In this document: in pieces, positions 455 to 16,426 of the stretch
How the letters are laid out: every line of letters begins with the position of its first letter
Position numbering within the stretch: position 1 is the first letter of the stretch
The notes under the pieces: model-generated
The model's input: the letters and a program-made list of their open reading frames with translations, nothing else
The model's database searches: none
Told to the model about the DNA's origin: nothing
Assembly (NCBI RefSeq): GCF_038025025.1
Contig: NW_027117344.1
Location: forward strand, 2,154,830 to 2,174,829
Origin: Phyllosticta citribraziliensis
Lineage: Eukaryota
Direction: 5' to 3'
DNA length: 20,000 nucleotides
Program-made: the position numbers and the translations under genes

Positions 455-1079
455 ATGTCGATCCTCTCCGACCCCAACGCCCCCCTCTTCAGCACCGAGC
501 TCATCTCGCCGACCGTTCTCTCCGCCCTGCCGCAGGGCTACACATGCCGACCGATTCGGCGCAGCGACTACCACGCGGGCTTCCTCGACGTGCTGCGCGT
601 GCTGACGACGGTCGGCGATGTGAGCGAGGCGCAATGGAACGAGCGCTACGACTGGATGAGCCGCCGCAACGACGAATACTTCCTCATCTGCATCATCGAC
701 GACAGCGGGCGCATCGTGGGCACGGGCGCTTTGGTCGTCGAGCGCAAATTCATCCACGGCCTGGGCCTCGTCGGACACATTGAGGACATTGCCGTCGCCA
801 AGGACCAGCAGGGCAAGAAGCTGGGCCTGCGCGTCATCCAGGCGTTGGACTTTGTCGCCGAAAAGGTGGGCTGCTACAAGGTGAGTTTGTGCTCTCCCCT
901 TCTGTGCGCGTTTTACCGTATGATCGCGGCGCTCACTGGCGGATTCGATCGGTGCTCATATCGTCGACCCCCAGACCATTCTCGACTGCTCCGAGGCCAA
1001 CGAGGGGTTTTACGTCAAGTGCGGCTTCAAGCGCGCCGGCCTCGAGATGGCGCACTACTACGACACGCCCAAGGCTTAA
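455..1079 (+). CDS. GNA1: Glucosamine-6-phosphate N-acetyltransferase (GNAT family), 176 aa; exons 455-880 and 975-1079
   Basis: CAAA-ATG start. Protein motifs GFLDVLRVLTTVG, ERKFIHGLG.VGHIEDIAV...QQGKKLG, GCYK. Intron 881-974 (GTGAGT...GCTCAT...CCAG, phase 0) restores the family C-terminus TILDCSEANEGFYVKCGFKRAGLEMAHYY; stop TAA at 1077-1079. Confidence 0.96.
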
Positions 1080-1576
1080 AAGACATCTTCCTGGATATAC
1101 TGTTGTCGGATTATATTCCGTCAAGACTCAATTGCGTGCATGGGATTGGGAACGATGAACGATTAGCGAGGCTACCTCTGGCCGCGGATTCCATAGAGAG
1201 AAGCGATTCACGACGGGCGTTGGGAGAATGTCAAGACCTATCTAAACGAGATTTAAATCTTGTGCGTGTCAGCCACATGCCCTTGTTCTGGTTGCGCTTG
1301 ACGTGCTGCAGGGCACAAATGTCGCACGCGTTGATAAGGACTGGTCACACGCGTGGCATCCACGCGCTCTATCTAATCTCTGAACCTCTGTTTAAAAGGA
1401 CAACCTACTCACGGAACCACTGTCGATTGATCTGAAATTCAGCACTGACATTCGAGAACACTTTCGCGCAGCAACAGCTGCAAATCAATCCGGCGACGAC
1501 ACCTCCTGCGACCAGACAGCAGAGCATTACAGTGGACCACCATGGCCGAAGAGCCGTGAAGCAGATCCTCTCCTGT

Positions 1577-7879: not shown

Positions 7880-10435
7880 TGGGACGACTAGAAATTATTC
7901 GCGAATGTGGTTGCGGGTCTCCAGGACATGTACAAAAGCGACCGACACGCTCGCGAGAATTAAGATCAACTTAACCAGGCGTGGAAAGGAATGACGAGGC
8001 AGCGTGACTTCACGCTTTTGCGGGAAAGCGTTCAAACCAAGTTCGACCAAAATTTGAGCCACAACGGTGCTGGTGAGGAACATCTTGAATATAAAGCTGG
8101 CAAGACGGTGGAGCTTTCAAGCACAGCCCTGTCCAGAGCGGGCCATACCCAACGGAGTCTCGGTGGTTTTCGATTTTTTCGCCCTATCTGGGTTTCATCT
8201 GCGGCAGCAGACAGTGGTTTACAAATTCGTGTGGTGCGAGATTTTGGTGTCTCAGCTATGAGACGCTAAGCTGCGGTTCCTCGCCGGCCGACTCAATCAG
8301 ACCGCTTGAGACGGGTGTCAAGGGGCTTGCCATAATTCGCGAGTAGAATGCCTTTGAGTTGATCTGACCGATGCTGAGGCATTGTTGTAATGAGGAAGAT
8401 CAAGTGGCAAGGCCCACGAGCCGAACGTCTGCATGTGGCCTGCGGGGAGAAATTTCGGCGCTCTCGGATTGCTCGAAATCCAAGTTGGTGAGAAATGGAC
8501 CCTTGTTTGAAATAGTTTGAGGATTGACCACCAGGAGTGATCCGGCGTCGCGATAGGCGCATCCATCTTTATCCATGATCTGGCTTCGGGTTCGCTCCGA
8601 ACAAAGACGTACCAGTGGGCGCTGTCATTTGCCAGACGGTCGAGACTTTCGCATAGCCAAAGGCAGCCAGAATGCCAAGTCGCTGCTCGCCACTTCCATC
8701 GCGCAACTTTAGTCGGTTGATCCGCAAGAAGCTGCCAACAGCAGCGGGGATGAATGAGGCTGCTGTCGTTGAAGATGCAAATGACTGTCTTACATATATT
8801 GGCAGCATCAAAAGCCTTGATTCAATGTCAGAGGAAGAACTGCCAAGTTGTAGTCAAGGTCATAGTTTTCGGGATATAGCACTGCGTGGTCAGCAGCAAG
8901 CATTGTTCAGTCGGTCATCAGCCAAGCTGTCGAACCAGCCAAGCGCTGCATCGGTGGTTCTTATTTGCCCAAGTCCCACATCTTGCACTTGGTGATAGCT
9001 TCCTGGGCCCCGTGGCAGGTTGGCATTGAATCCCAGCTCAGCCCCGTGCAATGCGGAGCTCGTGGTGTGTGATGCAGGGGCAGGAACCAAAGCTTAGCCA
9101 CAGCTTTGGAGTCGACGGCTTATTTGACACGTGCGACCAGGCGCAGTGCAAAGCAGTCTGGCGTGCTCCACTACTGTTCCGGCTTTCGGCTGCGGGTTTA
9201 ACAGATAGCCGTTTCTGGAGCGTCGCGGACTTGATCGGATCCATAGCTTCCATATAGGCACAAAGCACCTACCGTAGGTTTCTAGCATGGGGAATCTGCG
9301 CCAATAGGCACTCGTTTTGAGCAACATTCAGAGCTGCACTGGTTCCTGACCAGACTTCGCAGGAAACAACCCGAGTCGCGGGAATACCGATATCGCGATG
9401 GCGTTCCCTACGCTCGAAAATGCGCGTTAAAAACCGGACTCCCGCGGCATGTCGTTGGAACTTGGGGTTGGACAAGGCCAGCGAGTACATAGCTACTTGG
9501 CTTGTGCCGTGTTGCTGAGCAGAAGGATCGGAGCGCAAAGTCTGATGCCTAAGGTCAGTCAGTCGAGGAAAGGAGGATTGTCCTGTGCTCAAATGGTAGA
9601 CCAATCCGCATCCGAAGTCTACGGATCACACCTGAACCATTTTGCGGCACATCGGGAGAGATGGTGGCTTATGCCTCAAAACACCGAGGCCGACATAGAC
9701 GTGTTGACTTTGGTTAGCAGAAGGTACAGGCGACGGACACCGCCGTTGTTGCCGCAAGGCCCAAGGCCTCGAACCGGTTCTCAACAAACGCTTGGAAACT
9801 GTCGCGGCATTCAAGTATCACAACCCTTGGATGAATCTCTGTTTTCAGTTTGGCGTATCCGACGTGTCTTAGGTAAAGCTTTGACTCGAGAGCCTGGCCG
9901 TTGAAAGCGTGATGCCATTGTTGATGCTATCCGTTACGGGCTTCTGGGTCAACGGTCCGCTCGGTTCCCACTACCTAGCTGATACCATGCGTGGTGCTCG
10001 TACTTACCGCATTATGGAAGCACCAGTCTTCTTCCAATTTCATCGAGTTTGTCATTCTTCCGGCTCCGGCACTTTGCAGGTCAAACTTCAATCTCCACAA
10101 CAAGATCGATTCTCTGTGCTTCTGTTCGATAGAGTCCTTGCGAAGAAATTTCCATCTCCCTCGGGTGTGTGATCTCCTCGAGAAGAAAGTTGAGATTTTG
10201 GAGTGACCAAGAATGTTGGCTTTCTGGCCGGACAGATACCTCAGACAAGCTCTGCTATGTTCGCAAGGACAACCATGAAGTCATCTGGCCGGCACGGCCA
10301 AGATAACCAGGCTGTCGTTAAACTTTGCCATTCGTTTTGTCATCATCGGTTCTGTTCAGCCTTCACCAAGCCCGGTCGGATCCAAAAGTCTTCGCGAATC
10401 TTGGCCGTCGTTTCGACATTCCTCCGTGTCATCGT

Positions 10436-10481
10436 CTAATAGCATCAGCCCAGGTTGATCAAGGGAGGTAGGGGAACTTAT
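10436..10481 (-). other. Terminal 46-nt intron-like element with non-canonical AUAAGU 5' splice site (spliceosomal 3'-end cleavage signal)
   Basis: ATAAGT (10481-10476), pyrimidine tract, branch GCTGAT (10449-10444), TTAG ending at 10436. Size is comparable to the 49-57 nt introns elsewhere in the window. Confidence 0.82.
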
Positions 10482-10488
10482 AAAAAAT
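10482..10488 (-). promoter_or_regulatory. Sm-binding site AUUUUUU at the TER 3' end
   Basis: AGAUUUUUU directly follows a GC-rich hairpin and abuts the AUAAGU site. Confidence 0.8.
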
Positions 10489-10662
10489 CTTGGGCCACCT
10501 CCCCGAGTTGCCTCGGAGAGGCGGCTAGGGCTCCTCGCCCTCCTCCCAGTCTTACCCAACCGCTCATCCCCTGAGTGGCATCCACCACCAAATGCCCCTC
10601 ACTCGCCCACGCATGCATTTCCACAAGATCGCAACCACAGCGTCGAAGCCGCACCCCGGAAT

Positions 10663-10727
10663 GTCAGCCAGCAAGCTCAAACCTAGTCCCGGCCCTTCCG
10701 CCAACCCATCCAAGGGTCCAGACTAAC
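10663..10727 (-). other. Candidate CR4/5 three-way junction (P5/P6/P6.1) of TER
   Basis: GUUAGUC (10727-10721) pairs with GGCUGAC (10669-10663) and encloses a UGG-CCCUU/AAGGG-CCG hairpin plus the short hairpin AGGUUUGAGCUU (10684-10673). Located ~180-245 nt from the predicted 3' end. Confidence 0.6.
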
Positions 10728-11201
10728 GGAGGTGGAAAACGTGAATGAGAGGATGGAAATAAGCCGGCAGCCGCCGTAGGCAGACAAGTCGTAACTTTGA
10801 GCCTCACTCTGGAGAGGTCCTGCCTATTGCCACTGGAACCCGGCCGCAAGCCATCGTATTCTTCCACGAAACCCGGCCTCTGCTGGAATGGCTGTGGTTT
10901 GTCGGCAAGTCGGGACTGTCGAGTTTGCGATTTTGTTGCTGCGTACCAGAAGAAAGCTTTGAAACTGGGTCGACGAACAGTGTCGAAACAACGAGGTTTG
11001 TAAAGAGCAGTTGTTCGACTTTATGGACTCGAGTTCTGTAAGATTCGCAGCGATTGTCAGCCCTGGCCATTGCCACAAACCTCGGTCGGCTTCTCCATTG
11101 CTCCCGCAGAACCGCCAACGGCACTGCCCCGCTTCATCCAAACCTCGATGCCTTGCACCAAGAAGTCATCTCTCTGTTGTTGTTGCAGCCATCCCAGAGA
11201 C

Positions 11202-11282
11202 ACGTTTTTGTTTCCCTGTCGCCACCTGTAGGTAGCGCCGAGGGCGATATTCAGCGGACAAATAACATCATCAAAAACCGCT
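11202..11282 (-). other. Telomerase RNA pseudoknot with U-rich loop and A-rich strand
   Basis: Stem 1 AGCGG (11282-11278)/CCGCU (11257-11253); loop UUUUU (11277-11273); stem 2 AUGUU(A)UUUGU (11268-11258)/ACAAAAACGU (11211-11202). The connecting loop holds a hairpin CGCUACCU/AGGUGGCG. Confidence 0.8.
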
Positions 11283-12361
11283 TCCATCTCCACGCGTGTG
11301 CAGAGGTATTTTCGTACCCAGATGAAAACCCAGGCCGACAGGCTCGGCGCTCACCAGGATTCCCATCGCTGTTCGTTGGGACTGATGATTATCACGGCTG
11401 GTCGGACGACACCACATGGTGACAATGCAGATGGCGGGTGCCGTTGCAAAGGCTGGAGACTGTGCTGGCTGATATGCACTCCAGCAAGATTGGACAGGGT
11501 AGAGCATCAGGTTCGCTGAGCATTTCTGCTTGCGGAGTTGGAGAGCTGCTCGTGATCTTCACCACTGCCGGAATGGCAAGACCAAGTCAAGATTGCCGAG
11601 CCTTTGTGCGTATTGGATCCGCCTGCATTTTTTGAGAATGTCGACCCACACCCACGTTCGCCATGAAGAAGTGGACCCCCAATAAGCCCTTGGGGCACCT
11701 GACGACAGACCTGCAGACTGTCGATGGAACAGCATGCCTAACTCCCTCTGTGTGGTGCTTGCAGATGTCGCTGCACGCAATGCGTGGTTCTGACGATACT
11801 GTCTGGCAAATGGTGGTGGAGGCGAGGGGCATGCGTTCTGTTGTCAGACAAGGGCGGTAGCCGTCAAGACTGCGACCAATCAGGTGACACCGGCCAGGTA
11901 TATTGGTGATGCAACCACATGGTGGAAGCGGACAGCACCGAAGCTGCTTGTGAGGATCGAGGCAACTTTTCAGAAGCCCAAGACGGAATCTAATGTTGCA
12001 GGATCAGCAGCCCGACTGGCCTCATATAAGTTTGACAGAGGACGAAAATCCCATCGACAACCCGTAAAGGTCGCCCGGCAGCTCCCACCTGTGCTATTCC
12101 GGCATTCTCGCTAGGCACTTTGCCTCAAAGCCGTCCATGTAGACCAGAGTCTGCTGTCCGGATTGATGAATCGACGCGCGTCCCTTTCGAGGATCTTACC
12201 AAAACGACGCATGAAACCTCCCCAAGACCACGATTCTCGCTTTGACGACCCTTCCAACAACCTTCGTCCCGGCCGAAGCACACGGGCACATCGGGATGCT
12301 TCCAGGTGCTAGTCACGAGGTCGGCAACTGCGCTGAGGCCCGTGAGACTGAAACCGAAAAT

Positions 12362-12372
12362 GGTTAGGGTTA
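12362..12372 (-). other. Telomerase template 5'-UAACCCUAACC-3' (specifies TTAGGG)
   Basis: Plus strand reads GGTTAGGGTTA, about 1.8 telomeric repeats, in single copy. Confidence 0.88.
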
Positions 12373-12799
12373 AGTTCCGAATCCAATCCTCCCCATCGCG
12401 TCTCCCAGAAGGGCAGCACCGCAACGACCAAGCCACAGACACCGTGAGACCGTGCTGAGAGGCTCGAGTGAAGGACCGGCATCGCAAGCACCAACGCAAT
12501 GGAGTGTCGTTAAACATCCCTACTCCACCGTGAGGTGTTTCGGGGGACGGGAGACGGCGCTGTTATGGGAGGGAGCTGCATCGGTTGTGTTGACGCGGTC
12601 GCGCGAGAGAATGGTGGATGAAGAGAGGCGCGTGCCGTGGGGCCCACAATTGTCAACTTCGTTGAAGACCGGTACGACGGTTTTGAAATTGATGGACAAG
12701 TCGAATGGATGCGAATTTGGAGAGCGAACAGGAGTGGTTCCGCAAAGTCGTTGGTGGTGGAGTTGGAGAAGGGAGACGAAACGGTGGAGGTTGGGGACT

Positions 12800-12860
12800 T
12801 GGGAGACGCGTTTTCGGTTAGTAGCGCGTTTTGGGAAAATACGTGGATGACGTAAGACCG
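12800..12860. promoter_or_regulatory. Compact divergent promoter between TER and RTP1 with MCB-like and CRE-like motifs
   Basis: ACGCGTTTT (12806-12814), GCGCGTTTT (12824-12832) and TGACGTAA (12848-12855). A CT-rich tract runs away on the minus strand, and the RTP1 ATG is at 12938. Confidence 0.45.
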
Positions 12861-12937
12861 GCAGCTCCAGTCACCACGGCATCATCGAAAATATTCCTCC
12901 ACTGAACAACACCACGCCTGTGCTCTATTTTATCGAC

Positions 12938-15900
12938 ATGTCGGCGCTCAGGGGGGCACTCGATGCGGCCAACGCCTTCCTTGCGCCTGCATGGGAGCCT
13001 GGTAATGCCATCGGGCTTATCCGCTGTTCCTGAGTCTGACTAATGAGAAGCAGGGACTGAAGGCATTCTGGATCGCCTCTGTCAACATGTCGGACACGAT
13101 GGCAGCTCAAACATTTCTTCTGTTGTGGTTGAAGTGGCCTTGCAGCATCTTGTGCGGATTCACGAGGCAGATATCGCCAATGAAAGCCAAGGCAGAATAA
13201 GCAACGAGGAAGGCGAATACGACGGAGACTCGAGGACGACGCTTTACGGCCTCCTGGATCTGCTGGCCATTTGTGGAATTCTCCCAGCGCTCTCTCCTGG
13301 TGTCTCAATCAGGAAACGACCTAAATCTCTCATCGGTGGCCTGCAGGAGCCCAAAGAGTCGGAGCGGAGCTTTTCTCAGAATGCCCCGCTGTTAACCCAA
13401 ATCATCGACAGCTTGAGTGAGATTATTTCTGATCCTACACAGGGTCTCGCTCCACTGGTTCGAGAGAGAATTTTGACGGATGTTGTGGCTGGTGCAGCTC
13501 AACTTGCGTTCTCTCCGGAATCCGACTTCAAAACTCAGACAAGGTACAGGGAAGTGTTCGAGAGAATCGTTGAAAAGTAGGTATCCATTTTCTTCATGCT
13601 CCTATCATCCCTCTTCTCGGTTTCATTTGCCCTCAAAATGAGCATGAGCTCATCGTTGCCAGAATTCAAACGTCATCTGCTTTGCCTCTCTTTACCTATT
13701 TGATCCACCCTGAGACTCCTCAGTGGCTCAAACCTCAACTGTCAAACGCGCTCTCTGCGGTACCTTTACGTCCGCATGGTGTTCGATCAACCATCGAGTT
13801 CATTGCATCCTCGTATCCCACACCGCCAATGCCAGCGAATGAGCGTGAACGAAGTGCTCAAAAGGGGCCCGCGTTGCCGCTCGAAGCCATCAGTCAAGCC
13901 TCAAAACTTCTTTCTTCAGTTCCAAGTTTCATGGAGCCGGAGCGCTATTTCAGTGCGCTGGCGCCGCAGCTCCTTGGCATGCTGGATGGAATCGAAGGGC
14001 CAGATTTCTCCAAGGCTGCTGCCCTCGTCATTGGTAGTGGTATTTTGGGCAAACGCGCGACTGGTGCACCAGGAAGTATAGGGTGGAGATTATTTGCTGA
14101 GCCATTGCTATTTGACATTGCTCCGCCCGCCCGTGGGAAATCGACCTCAAAGAATACCCCAGGTGTACTTGTCCCAGAAGATCGTCTCAAGCGCGCTTTG
14201 TCCCGTCTTGCGGCATTGCTCTCCTCACATCCTAACCCAGGGCTGACCAGCCGTCTATTGGGAAACCTCATGATGCCCTTGTGGGCACTTCTGGATCACG
14301 CAAAATCAAGACCCATCGCGCGCTTCTGGTCCGATAATGCCCGCAGGCTGCTCTTGACTTACTTTCGACTTGGGGCTGGAGCAAACCAGCTCGAAAGACT
14401 TGCCACAAACCTGCTCTGGAATGGACCAGATGCTTGGGAATATGGACCGGGCAGCGAAGGTGGGGTCGAAGTCAGACATCGACAAGCAAGCGTTGAGGAC
14501 GAGGGGATTCTCGAAAAAATGGCGATGATGGAGCAGAGGCTGGAAAGCTTTCAAGCCATCTTGACAAGCGACTCGATCGAGGACCATGATATTGGGGAGC
14601 TGTTTGTGAAACTAACCAAGCGATGGCTGCTTCCCAAAACCATATCCACAGAGCCAGGAAAGAGAATAAAGCTCGAAATTGGCGACGAGCAAGACCCACT
14701 CCAGTCACTCATCATCGCCAAGATCGTCATGGTTATGTTGGAGGATTTTAAAGATAAACTCACGTCAAATCCTGATAATCTCATTGAGTTGGTAGCGCAG
14801 CTTCTGGGTCAATGGGTCGAGGACGACAGGGCGAAGAGAAAGAGGAGCAACGATCTGAAGAGGGCCAACTACGCGGGACTATCAAACATTGTCCAGACTG
14901 GAGCGAGGCAGTCGAAACCTGGACAGAAAGACGTTGATGAGCCTGCACAAGTCGAAGCAGGAGATATCGTCCCAGTCGCCCTCAGTCTGCTCAACACGCT
15001 CATTTCCGCTGAGAACTTCAAACCTACCGTTCAAACATCTGCAACACTCTCCGCTATCTTGCCCACACTCGAACTACTCCGCAAGCCGCCGCCTGGCTCC
15101 GATTTACCCGCTTCTGTCTCCATGACGGCCTCGAATCTGACCTCTCAACTGTCGTCACTTCTCAACATACCCGCCAGTCCAAGCAAGGCTGCAGCTACTT
15201 CCTCAAAGCCCAGCGTCATTTCAGACCACGACCGTCAAACTCTTAACACGGCTCTGAACGACCTGACCCAGTCTGAGCACCCTCCTATCCGCGCCGCAGC
15301 CCTCTCCTCAATTGCATCGCTCGCTGCCGCCCAATCACCGTTCCCCGACCTTCCTGGACTGACCTTGTTCCTCCTGCGCACTGCGCTGCCTGATCCCGAC
15401 GGCTTTGTCCATCTGCACGCCATCAAGACGCTAGTCGCCTTGTCTGCGCGCGACCCGCCGCTCATTACGCGCCTTCTTACGGATGCATTCCTCGATCCGA
15501 AGGAAGAAGCCGTAGGGGAGGCAGGACTCGAGGGGCGCCTCAGGGTCGGCGAGTCATTGGGCAAGATTGTCGGCGAAGTGCGCGACGCGTCTGGTTCTAG
15601 CAGCAACCCAGGCGCCATAAGCAACGACGCTCGCGTCGTTTTGGGCAACATTTCGCGCGCAGCCGTGACGGTGGCTGGACGGCGTGGCAAGCGGCCGCGT
15701 GACTTGAAGCAGAGACAACGGGCGGCGATGGTGGAGCAGAGGAAACAAAGAGAGGCGGAGAAAGCGTGGGGAGGCGCGGTGCCGGACATACCCGGCATCA
15801 ACGCCGCCGAGGACGACGAGGATGAGAAAGATGGAGCGAATGCTGCCGAAATTGAGGCCCTCTCGCGCATTGTGACGGGTTGGTCTGAGACGGGGATTTC

Positions 15901-16426
15901 GGAAGACTTGAGGCTGCGCGCGCTGGCCCTCTCCGTCCTCTCGACAGCCGTTGAGGCTCCTGTCACGTTGAGCATGCTCCTGCGCGGGAGTGACACGCAG
16001 AGAGTGGTGCCCGAGGCGGTGGACGTGGCGCTCAAAGTGCTTGTGCTGGAGCAGGAGGAGCGACACGTGATTTTGAGACGTGCGGCACTCATTGTGCTGT
16101 GGAGTCTGATCAAGGGCGTCGACAGCAACGAGGACGGCAACGGGCTGGCCGGCTTTTTGCCGCCGGCTACGTGGGAAGAGATTGAAGGCGTGGCAAGGTG
16201 GGTGCAGGACACGGAGGCTGATGTGCTCGCGAAGGGACACGCAGGGGAGGTTCTGGTGGCTCTTGAGGAGCGGAAAATGGGACGGGCCTTTGGCGCAACC
16301 CCCATGGATGTCGGTATCTTTCCAACAGGCATGACGAGCAACCTGGGTTTGGGAGAATTGAAGGGACTCAGCTTGAATCCTGACAAGAAAGAGGGCAAAA
16401 GGATGGTTATCGAGGAAATTGAGTAG
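12938..16426 (+). CDS. RTP1: RTP1/Tango6-like HEAT/ARM-repeat protein (RNA polymerase II assembly/nuclear import factor), ~1116 aa; exons 12938-13001, 13054-13576, 13663-16426
   Basis: Introns 13002-13053 (GTAATG...ACTAAT...CAG) and 13577-13662 (GTAGGT...GCTCAT...CAG) join ORFs 13125..13580 and 13682..16426 in frame. C-terminal motifs LNDL...PPIRAAAL, DPDGFVHLHAIKTL, RLRVGESL, EDLRLRALALSVL and ILRRAALIVL resemble the RTP1_C1/RTP1_C2 domains, recognised from memory. Confidence 0.85.

Follow-up and report, generated by a model that had tools for sequence, protein, structure and literature searches.

A very probable telomerase RNA gene of the Pezizomycotina type, with a relocated three-way junction and candidate spliceosomal 3′-end signals

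Telomerase RNA (TER) genes of filamentous ascomycetes are of a kind often missed by automatic annotation. The locus studied here raises the question of whether the minus strand of the window (the whole stretch of DNA that was analysed, 20,000 nucleotides long) carries such a gene between ~12760 and 10482. A sequence-only reading had named this stretch the TER locus of the species and had claimed seven features in it. Our analysis supports that identification, since profiles built from other TER loci match the template region and the junction with E ~1e-18 and an apparently discrete ~2.2 kb unit is covered by cDNA-derived contigs. Six of the seven features hold; the exception is the three-way junction, whose position was wrong and whose true site lies ~100 nt upstream. 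As read from the sequence, the elements that define Pezizomycotina TERs are all present on the minus strand in the correct order and with the correct spacing (Table 1). We consider it very likely that the locus is a TER gene of the Pezizomycotina type, that is, of a filamentous ascomycete.

Table 1. Features of the TER locus, in window coordinates
Feature	Position	Strand	Remarks
TER/RTP1-like intergenic stretch	12766..12910	.	Short; neighbour divergent, on the plus strand
Mature telomerase RNA	10482..12760	-	~2.28 kb; 5′ end approximate; 3′ end probably at or just inside the U tract
Conserved 5′ element CUCGAGCCUCUCAGCACGGUCUCAC	12444..12468	-	High-confidence block in the nhmmer match 12476-12340; upstream of the template
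Core-closing helix, 5′ strand, UUCGGA	12376..12381	-	Ends 3 nt before the template
Template UAACCCUAACC	12362..12372	-	Unique in the window; lines up with TAACCCTAA, invariant in 30 loci
Conserved template core UAACCCUAA	12372-12364	-	9 nt
H-type pseudoknot	11199..11282	-	RF02462 local match; alignment A2 and pair counts
Pseudoknot S1	11282-11278 with 11257-11253	-	
Pseudoknot U-rich loop	11277-11271	-	
Pseudoknot S2	11269-11258 with 11211-11199	-	One A-A mismatch, 11263 with 11206
Core-closing helix, 3′ strand, UCUGGG	11193..11198	-	Directly after the pseudoknot
Three-way junction (CR4/5-like)	10766..10835	-	RNAalifold consensus, 17 sequences
P5	10826-10820 with 10783-10777	-	
P6	10819-10799	-	
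Invariant A between P6 and P6.1	10798	-	
P6.1	10797-10794 with 10789-10786	-	4 bp, loop UACG
3′-terminal hairpin	10494..10525	-	14 bp, GCAA loop
AUUUUUU, Sm/Lsm-like U tract	10482..10488	-	Abuts the 5′ splice site; putative protein-binding site
Processing "intron"	10436..10481	-	46 nt; sequence
5′ splice site AUAAGU	10481-10476	-	
Branch site GCUGAUG	10449-10443	-	Branch A 10445
3′ splice site UAG	10438-10436	-	
C/D-snoRNA-like element	10357-10233	-	125 nt downstream of TER; C box, D box, terminal stem

The H-type pseudoknot of the sequence-only reading was recovered on the minus strand. An alignment of 42 sequences preserves its pairing: 93.7% of the pseudoknot cells pair, the 5′ strands being partly fixed by the search pattern. 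Three of the six S1 pairs show covariation, and covariation over the pseudoknot was no better than in shuffles on two measures (double-change pairs, 207/500; pair types, 467/500). The interior contains a CCCU/AGGG helix and an inserted hairpin. Pezizomycotina TERs are expected to have a pseudoknot with U-rich strands for U-A-U triples, and here S1 and S2 both form, with one mismatch; the strands may be able to form a U-A-U triple helix. Comparison with fungal telomerase RNA models, which had been proposed as a check, gave a mixed result. The Rfam model RF02462 (Telomerase_Asco) matched 11281-11199 with E 0.0029 (model positions 1285-1381), which speaks for a TER, but the score of 19.1 bits falls below the gathering cut-off of 30 bits, a score limit of one model and not a biological feature. 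A weaker, collinear RF02462 match placed model positions 1646-1690 on 10829-10786, inside the junction. At the gathering threshold no Rfam match was obtained in the whole window, so that the locus is not a member of RF02462 by score; RF02462 matched neither of the two narrower stretches scanned, 10440-10900 and 12200-12800, and the weak match at 10829-10786 was absent.

Related loci were collected by using a degenerate pseudoknot pattern as a metagenome query, which fetched 66 loci. The RF02462 cut-off was reached by 18 of the 20 loci tested; three of them matched the full model (677-1229 bits) and 15 passed via local matches only, mostly to the pseudoknot. Because the whole model matched in just three of 20 related loci, RF02462 seems to fit one clade well and the others at the pseudoknot only. 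The nearest relatives of the window scored 44.5 (L028), 40.9 (L060) and 37.9 bits (L035), compared to 19.1 bits for the window itself. Of the 39 loci with enough upstream DNA, 34 carry TAACCCTAA on the same strand at a distance of 794-1301 nt upstream (1092 nt in the window), and a U tract followed by ATA[AC]GT was found 540-996 nt downstream in 28 of the 38 loci with enough downstream DNA (799 nt in the window). BLASTN of the window against the loci returned three collinear islands, at 12394-12351, 11293-11168 and 10824-10779. The profiles of the template region and of the junction each matched the window once; the two matches are collinear, and their spacing agrees with that in the loci.

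The template claim likewise stood: TAACCCTAACC occurs at 12372-12362 as the sole copy in the window, and at least one copy arose in 5 of 200 shuffles. This site has what is expected of a Pezizomycotina template, namely complementarity to ~1.5 TTAGGG repeats, through UAACCCUAA, and a conserved flank. An HMM of the template region, built from 30 loci with the window left out, gave a single match in the window (nhmmer; 12476-12340, E 3.3e-18). The conserved CUCGAGCCUCUCAGCACGGUCUCAC element within this match may belong to the boundary helices or to those enclosing the core. In the available text of PMC3592445, the N. crassa template is given as 5′-UAACCCUAA-3′. Telomere complementarity extends over 11 nt here, two beyond the 9-nt core, unlike in the 29 unique loci compared, none of which shows this extension by two.

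A long-range helix closing the core had also been claimed, and all six of its pairs form in the window (12381-12376 with 11198-11193), at the place of the core-enclosing or boundary helix of Pezizomycotina TERs. In the same register, 27 unique loci were compared: six of six pairs form in seven and five of six in 11 (at least five in 18/27). The remaining nine have at most four pairs, and six of these nine make up one clade, which appears to use another helix. The UUCGGA strand, or the helix as a whole, probably also sets the template boundary. Longer RNAduplex duplexes of the 150-nt flanks were implausibly long and were rejected; the innermost helix alone was kept and tested separately.

The three-way junction had been placed at 10727-10663. 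This position has no match in relatives and folds poorly (z -0.84, with 44 of 200 shuffles folding as well); the conserved junction is at 10835-10766. Junction model R1, built from 16 loci with the window left out, matched there with 54.2 bits and E 7.2e-18, the next best match having E 1.6, and a single-sequence fold reproduces the junction at the same place. In the junction alignment 95.6% of cells pair, double changes occur in 11 of 20 pairs, and the covariation score was reached by none of 500 shuffles. The compact P5/P6/P6.1 junction with an invariant A that is expected of Pezizomycotina TERs is thus located at 10835-10766. The P6.1 loop is UACG in the window, compared to mostly YUAG in relatives. 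A wider stretch around the position first proposed, 10760-10640, folds worse than shuffles (z +1.74). The AGAG...CUC hairpin at 10811-10799, considered as P6.1, was rejected: it carries uncompensated changes at alignment columns 37 and 44, and RNAalifold puts those bases in P6 and its loop.

At the 3′ end, the AUAAGU, branch site and UAG signals named by the sequence-only reading are all present. The same geometry recurs in 19 of the 22 unique 3′ regions of homologous loci, where the branch site follows the 5′ splice site by ~35-46 nt and the YAG lies ~9-11 nt later. With the U tract they make up the arrangement expected at a Pezizomycotina TER 3′ end (U tract, AUA(A/C)GU, branch site, 3′ splice site), which here occupies 10488-10436. 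The Sm-site claim agrees with the sequence, in which U6 at 10487-10482 is preceded by A10488, and a U tract immediately 5′ of ATAAGT recurs in the metagenome loci. The GCAA hairpin was also confirmed, with a folding energy of -30.3 kcal/mol (z -4.05) that none of 200 shuffles equalled. A stable hairpin occurs at the same place in 19 of the 22 unique homologous 3′ regions, and one relative's contig, inspected by eye, keeps the stem via an A-U to G-C change. In A. niger TER, AUAAGU blocks the second splicing step and leads to first-step-only cleavage, according to the available text of PMC4299874. From the AUAAGU 5′ splice site, we infer that the mature 3′ end is at or just inside the U tract.

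RNA-derived sequence covers the locus. Of the runs X1 to X7, the analysis of cover used X1, X3 and X5, whose contigs derive from RNA, because they contain intron-skipping GT..AG joints in the neighbouring gene. In three studies, the gene body appears in cDNA-derived contigs as a unit of ~2.0-2.2 kb; these contigs merge overlapping transcripts and therefore give neither strand, nor RNA ends, nor a single molecule. The X1 contig spans 10543-12747 (2206 nt, identical to the window), the X5 contig 10663-12667 (2007 nt) and the X3 contig, from organism B, 10023-12765, past the TER 3′ end into the next gene. Relatives at ~96% and ~93% identity are found among the RNA-derived contigs and keep the whole TER unit. 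X1 has no listed cover of 10472-10542, a stretch spanning the proposed 3′ end, and X1, X3 and X5 have none of ~12766-12910, though a coverage hole proves nothing in either case. The contig ends near 12747 and 12765 are a weak hint to the TER 5′ end. The stretch 12766-12910 would be a promoter region shared by TER and the RTP1-like gene. The contigs of this neighbour, spliced at 13000/13053, begin with adapter letters at 12911-12913, and the neighbouring ORF (13682-16426) contains the Pfam domains RTP1_C1, RTP1_C2 and ARM_TANGO6. A Pfam search of 21 ORFs in and around the region gave matches for the RTP1-like and GNAT neighbours only, with no family for ORFs inside the TER region and no match in the region downstream of TER.

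The sequence elements, with their conservation and covariation, and the RNA-derived coverage of the locus are observed; the mechanism, from the strand and exact ends of the RNA to telomere synthesis, is drawn by homology with the TERs of N. crassa and Aspergillus. A precursor extending past 10436 would be made from the minus strand by RNA polymerase II, and in it the spliceosome would recognise AUAAGU, the branch site GCUGAUG and UAG. With an A as the first intron nucleotide the second step would be blocked, so that splicing would stop after the first transesterification and the released RNA would end at the U tract that follows the stable terminal hairpin. The long-range helix would close the template-pseudoknot core and probably set the template boundary. 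TERT would be bound by the pseudoknot and, separately, by the P5/P6/P6.1 junction, and UAACCCUAA(CC) would be copied into TTAGGG repeats.

The RNA class is already known, and the locus adds one to a family whose description dates from 2012-2013 (PMC3592445, PMC3603654). The available text of Qi et al. 2012 (PMC3592445) deals with 72 Pezizomycotina TERs and gives lengths of 2049 nt for NcrTER and 2425 nt for the M. graminicola TER. Like NcrTER and the other TERs of that set, the RNA proposed here would be a long Pol II-type RNA with the UAACCCUAA template; long-range helices close the template-pseudoknot core, the pseudoknot contains an inserted helix, and P5, P6 and P6.1 make up a compact three-way junction (PMC3592445). 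Unlike these TERs, its sequence aligns in islands only and its P6.1 loop is UACG; unlike the RF02462 model, it gives no full-length alignment. It shares with Aspergillus TERs, as presented in the available text of Kuprys et al. 2013 (PMC3603654) and Kannan et al. 2015 (PMC4299874), a U-rich Sm-like tract followed by AUAAGU, a branch site and a 3′ splice site. The same texts give the Aspergillus branch site as GCUAACU or GCUGACU, compared to GCUGAUG here, and the boundary element as a local helix, whereas the template-adjacent helix here is long-range. Loci with a full-length RF02462 match have GGAGG or CGGGG between the U tract and AUAAGU, whereas here U6 abuts AUAAGU after the 14-bp hairpin.

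Likenesses extend beyond the filamentous fungi. As in the vertebrate CR4/5 domain described in the available text of PMC4993307, an invariant adenosine separates P6 from a P6.1 of 4 bp within a three-way junction, the P6.1 loop having 4 nt here and 5 in vertebrates. Unlike vertebrate TER, the RNA has no H/ACA 3′ domain, and its 3′ end would be formed by the spliceosome. In this it would resemble S. pombe TER1, whose 3′ end arises via spliceosomal first-step cleavage adjoining an Sm site (available text of PMC4299874). S. pombe TER1 has a canonical GU 5′ splice site and a different second-step stalling, in contrast to the filamentous-fungal AU site of the window.

For this fungus and those closely related to it, the annotation of a telomerase RNA gene is now well supported, and the map of the essential three-way junction is corrected. 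The locus offers reagents for telomere work in the form of template mutants and 3′-end processing mutants. It is also an example of a curated Rfam model passing over a genuine member of its family, with small domain profiles from environmental sequences finding the TER at E ~1e-18, a recipe that could annotate TERs across Pezizomycotina genomes. The biology of the locus fits existing knowledge and raises no new question, except for possible co-transcription with the snoRNA-like element downstream.

Other readings of the locus were weighed against the TER gene. That the locus has nothing to do with telomerase, and is a long non-coding RNA or an untranslated region carrying a telomere-like motif by chance, is extremely improbable. 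A single 11-mer does arise in 5 of 200 window shuffles, but three conserved domains are matched by profiles of other TERs, collinear and correctly spaced, two of them with E ~1e-18, and family-specific 3′ processing signals are present as well. A duplicated or decaying TER copy, with the working telomerase RNA encoded elsewhere in the genome, is very improbable. The A-A mismatch in S2, the unusual P6.1 loop and a pseudoknot score below those of L028, L060 and L035 could be read as signs of decay; against this, all core elements are intact and correctly paired, the 3′ processing signals are complete, RNA-derived contigs occur in three studies and the relatives at ~96% and ~93% identity keep the whole unit.

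A further reading is compatible with TER identity and differs in gene architecture only. In it, TER is no free-standing gene but opens a longer minus-strand transcription unit that also gives the snoRNA-like element and perhaps the next spliced RNA, with spliceosomal cleavage separating the products; we regard it as unlikely. A single RNA-derived contig of organism B extends from 12765 across the TER 3′ end as far as 10023 and then further into the downstream region, with 12 other letters in place of 91 (9932-10022). An X1 contig has its start at 10471, within the processing intron of TER by 10 nt, and extends to 10008; its mean depth is 1634, compared to 654 for the TER body. The 10482/10435 exon-exon joint is seen in no contig. 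The snoRNA-like element lies on the same strand as TER and has a C box, a D box and a terminal stem, but its Rfam snoRNA matches are all far below the cut-offs, and a search of the DNA downstream of TER in other loci, covering 25 unique regions, found no such element. Moreover, the merged contigs show neither a single molecule nor a strand, and a separate promoter near 10471-10540 would explain the data equally well. It is more doubtful still that TER and a C/D box snoRNA come from one Pol II precursor, in which first-step spliceosomal cleavage at 10482/10481 frees TER and the downstream product is the precursor of an abundant snoRNA (~10357-10233). This downstream product would start in the processing intron and may even run on into the next spliced RNA. 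If this were true, forming the TER 3′ end would leave a second functional RNA as its by-product, and telomerase RNA output would be coupled to snoRNA output. The C/D-snoRNA-like element downstream is the sole oddity of the locus.

The minus-strand locus is very probably a telomerase RNA (TER) gene, as the sequence-only reading had proposed: six of its seven features were confirmed and the seventh, the three-way junction, was relocated. In the search with fungal telomerase RNA models that it had called for, the whole window gave no match at Rfam gathering thresholds. An E-value-reported scan of 10200-13000 against all 4227 families ranked RF02462 (Telomerase_Asco) best, at 11281-11199 (minus strand, 19.1 bits, E = 0.0029), across model positions 1285-1381, which correspond to the pseudoknot. 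A second, weaker and collinear match at 10829-10786 (11.3 bits, E = 0.71) covered model positions 1646-1690. The family cut-off is 30 bits, which neither match reaches; scans restricted to the template region and to the 3' part returned nothing further.

A degenerate pseudoknot pattern, which the window satisfies as does the Rfam consensus, was run over a metagenome collection and yielded 66 loci. For 39 of these, the upstream sequence extends to 1350 nt or more, and 34 of the 39 carry TAACCCTAA there on the same strand (missing from L010, L016, L017, L049 and L051), 794-1301 nt from the pseudoknot (1092 nt in the window). Downstream sequence reaches 1000 nt or more in 38 loci, of which 28 contain a U tract followed by ATA[AC]GT there (missing from L002, L014, L016, L017, L021, L023, L029, L050, L055 and L056), at 540-996 nt (799 nt in the window). 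RF02462 matched 18 of 20 loci scanned at gathering thresholds, L007 and L029 giving no match. Together, TAACCCTAA, the 3' signals and the RF02462 matches identify the loci as telomerase RNA genes. Three of the 66 (L016, L017 and L038) have neither the pseudoknot 3' strand nor any other TER element, and look like chance or unrelated matches to the pattern. The whole 1858-position model was matched by only three of the 20 (L018, 1229 bits; L021, 1213; L005, 677), and 15 had local matches only, mostly to the pseudoknot. RF02462 thus describes a single clade well, with only local fits in others, which explains the below-threshold score of the window; the model seems to under-detect TERs outside that clade. 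BLASTN of 12900-10300 (minus strand) against the loci gave three collinear islands, at 12394-12351, 11293-11168 and 10824-10779.

Coordinates of features in and around the proposed TER gene (window positions)
Feature	Position	Strand	Basis or remark
GNAT acetyltransferase ORF	455-1435		flanking gene
UAG	10438-10436	-	sequence
GCUGAUG (branch motif)	10449-10443	-	sequence
AUAAGU	10481-10476	-	sequence; then 26 nt to branch motif
AUUUUUU tract	10488-10482	-	sequence
Linker CCAAG	10493-10489	-	sequence
14-bp hairpin, GCAA loop	10525-10494	-	sequence, fold
Pseudoknot stem S2	11269-11258 with 11211-11199	-	42-sequence alignment
U-rich loop	11277-11271	-	between 5' strands of S1 and S2
Pseudoknot stem S1	11282-11278 with 11257-11253	-	42-sequence alignment
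Template 11-mer	12372-12362	-	direct sequence reading
RTP1/TANGO6-like ORF	13682-16426	+	nearest protein clusters ascomycete

Around the template, the minus strand reads ...GGAUUGGAUUCGGAACU-UAACCCUAACC-AUUUUCGG... The 11-mer TAACCCTAACC lies where the template had been placed and is the sole copy in the 20 kb eukaryotic window; it was present in 5/200 dinucleotide shuffles. A template-region profile HMM, built from 30 unique loci with the window left out, gave one match in the window, at 12476-12340 (minus strand, 59.6 bits, E = 3.3e-18); within it, upstream of the template, lies a conserved block (12468-12444). The motif GUCUCAC(GG) flanks the template on both sides (12340-12349 and 12444-12451, minus strand) and is kept in the loci at both sites, and the 42-sequence pseudoknot alignment has a conserved ACAGAGAGA about 25 nt past the pseudoknot. 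These elements may form further core-enclosing helices.

The H-type pseudoknot, first placed at 11282-11202, was recovered at 11282-11199 by the RF02462 match and by the pairing of 42 aligned sequences, in which 93.7% of 798 cells pair, the 5' strands being partly set by the search pattern itself. The long loop after S1 contains a CCCU/AGGG helix and an inserted hairpin. S1 covaries at 3/6 pairs. S2 hardly varies: only one of its pairs covaries (UA 18, CG 13, other 11), and in the window it has a single A-A mismatch. The covariation score was 0.184 versus 0.093 in shuffles (reached by 0/500), with no excess over shuffles in double-change pairs (207/500 reach) or pair types (467/500 reach). The long-range helix closing the core, claimed without coordinates, could be located: UCUGGG at 11198-11193, directly past S2, forms 6/6 pairs with UUCGGA at 12381-12376 (minus strand), which stops 3 nt short of the template. 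Checked in that register, 27 unique loci gave 6/6 pairs in seven cases, 5/6 in 11 and at most four in nine. Six of these nine belong to one clade, which seems to use an AAUUGG/CCAGUU helix instead.

The three-way junction was aligned over the window and 16 unique locus sequences and folded with RNAalifold. The consensus was a three-way junction made up of stem P5, hairpin P6 (6 bp, invariant), an invariant A and hairpin P6.1 (4 bp). Of 340 cells, 95.6% pair, and both sides have changed in 11/20 pairs, a count equalled by 3/500 shuffles. The covariation score was 0.441 compared to 0.229 in shuffles (0/500 reach); slid partners scored no more than 0.160. In P6.1, two of the four pairs covary (GC 9, AU 8; CG 7, UA 7, UG 2). 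R1, a covariance model for which only the 16 loci were used, matched the window at 10835-10766 (minus strand, 54.2 bits, E = 7.2e-18; next best E = 1.6), and the minimum-energy fold of this segment alone is the same junction (z = -2.21). The junction was earlier proposed at 10727-10663, where R1 gave no match and the sequence folds like shuffles (z = -0.84, 44/200 as good). We therefore place it at 10835-10766, at the third BLASTN island. This layout agrees with the fungal CR4/5 as described (PMC4993307, PMC3592445), in which the helices are short, P6.1 has 4 bp and an invariant A separates P6 from P6.1.

The proposed 3' elements were all found. The GCAA hairpin folds at -30.3 kcal/mol (z = -4.05); by eye, the contig of a relative (X8) keeps the stem, with one A-U pair replaced by G-C and one G-C pair by G-U. 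The 3' regions compared were 22 unique ones, the window's and 21 from loci. A YURAY branch motif and then YAG occur in 19 of them, mostly spaced as in the window (branch at 36, YAG 9 nt later), and a stable structure just upstream in 19. These signals fit Aspergillus TERs, in which AUAAGU is accompanied by a U-rich Sm-like tract and the branch site reads GCUAACU or GCUGACU (PMC3603654); AUAAGU was shown to keep the spliceosome from going beyond the first step (PMC4299874). Qi et al. 2012 (PMC3592445) report no canonical Sm site for their TERs, and we therefore term the U tract, previously called an Sm site, Sm/Lsm-like only. Differences from described TERs are small: the P6.1 loop reads UACG, the pseudoknot carries one mismatch, and telomere complementarity is 11 nt, not 9, an extension by two seen in 0/29 unique loci. 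With an inferred length of about 2.28 kb, the RNA lies towards the top of the size range reported (2049 and 2425 nt; PMC3592445).

Eight sequencing runs contain parts of the locus, and contigs of four were compared over 9600-13600. X1 (identical to the window) and X3 (about 96% identical) carry an 'RNA?' label that is a guess; X5 (about 93%) is RNA-Seq on record. In all three runs, contigs of the plus-strand RTP1-like gene skip a GT..AG intron (52 nt at 13001-13052, joined 13000/13053, in X1 and X3; joined 13006/13054 in X5) and, in the two studies X1 and X3, start at 12911-12913 with Illumina adapter letters. The three runs are thus RNA-derived, and the contig starts make the TER and the RTP1-like gene divergent neighbours about 150 bp apart. 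The TER locus is covered by a discrete 2206-nt contig in X1 (10543-12747), a 2007-nt contig in X5 (10663-12667) and, in X3, a contig from 12765 to 10023 that runs on downstream. Contigs give neither strand nor exact ends nor abundance, but they establish transcription of the locus in three studies and two relatives. An exon-exon joint spanning 10481-10436 is absent from the contigs of X1, X3, X5 and X8. In X1, 10472-10542, predicted 3' end included, lacks listed cover, and such contig holes prove nothing. The four longest ORFs inside 10436-12760 contain no Pfam family.

On the same strand, 125 nt downstream of the TER, we observed a C/D box snoRNA-like element at 10233-10357. Its C box, (A)UGAUGA, occupies 10346-10340 and its D box, CUGA, 10245-10242; the terminal stem, ACAGAACC/GGUAUCUGU, is present in the MFE fold. 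Five of its seven weak Rfam matches are C/D box families, all far below cut-offs. It was not found downstream of the TER in other loci. The element lies within an X1 contig (10008-10471) of higher mean depth (1634) that begins 10 nt inside the TER processing intron. TER and snoRNA may share one precursor, an arrangement not described in the titles and abstracts searched. Further downstream, X1 contains the spliced joint of an 81-nt GT..AG intron at 9927-10007 (minus strand; CT..AC on the plus strand). This intron is part of a minus-strand transcript continuing to about 6990, whose ORFs contain no Pfam family. X3 has 12 other letters in place of 91 nt at 9932-10022, which may be the same splice.
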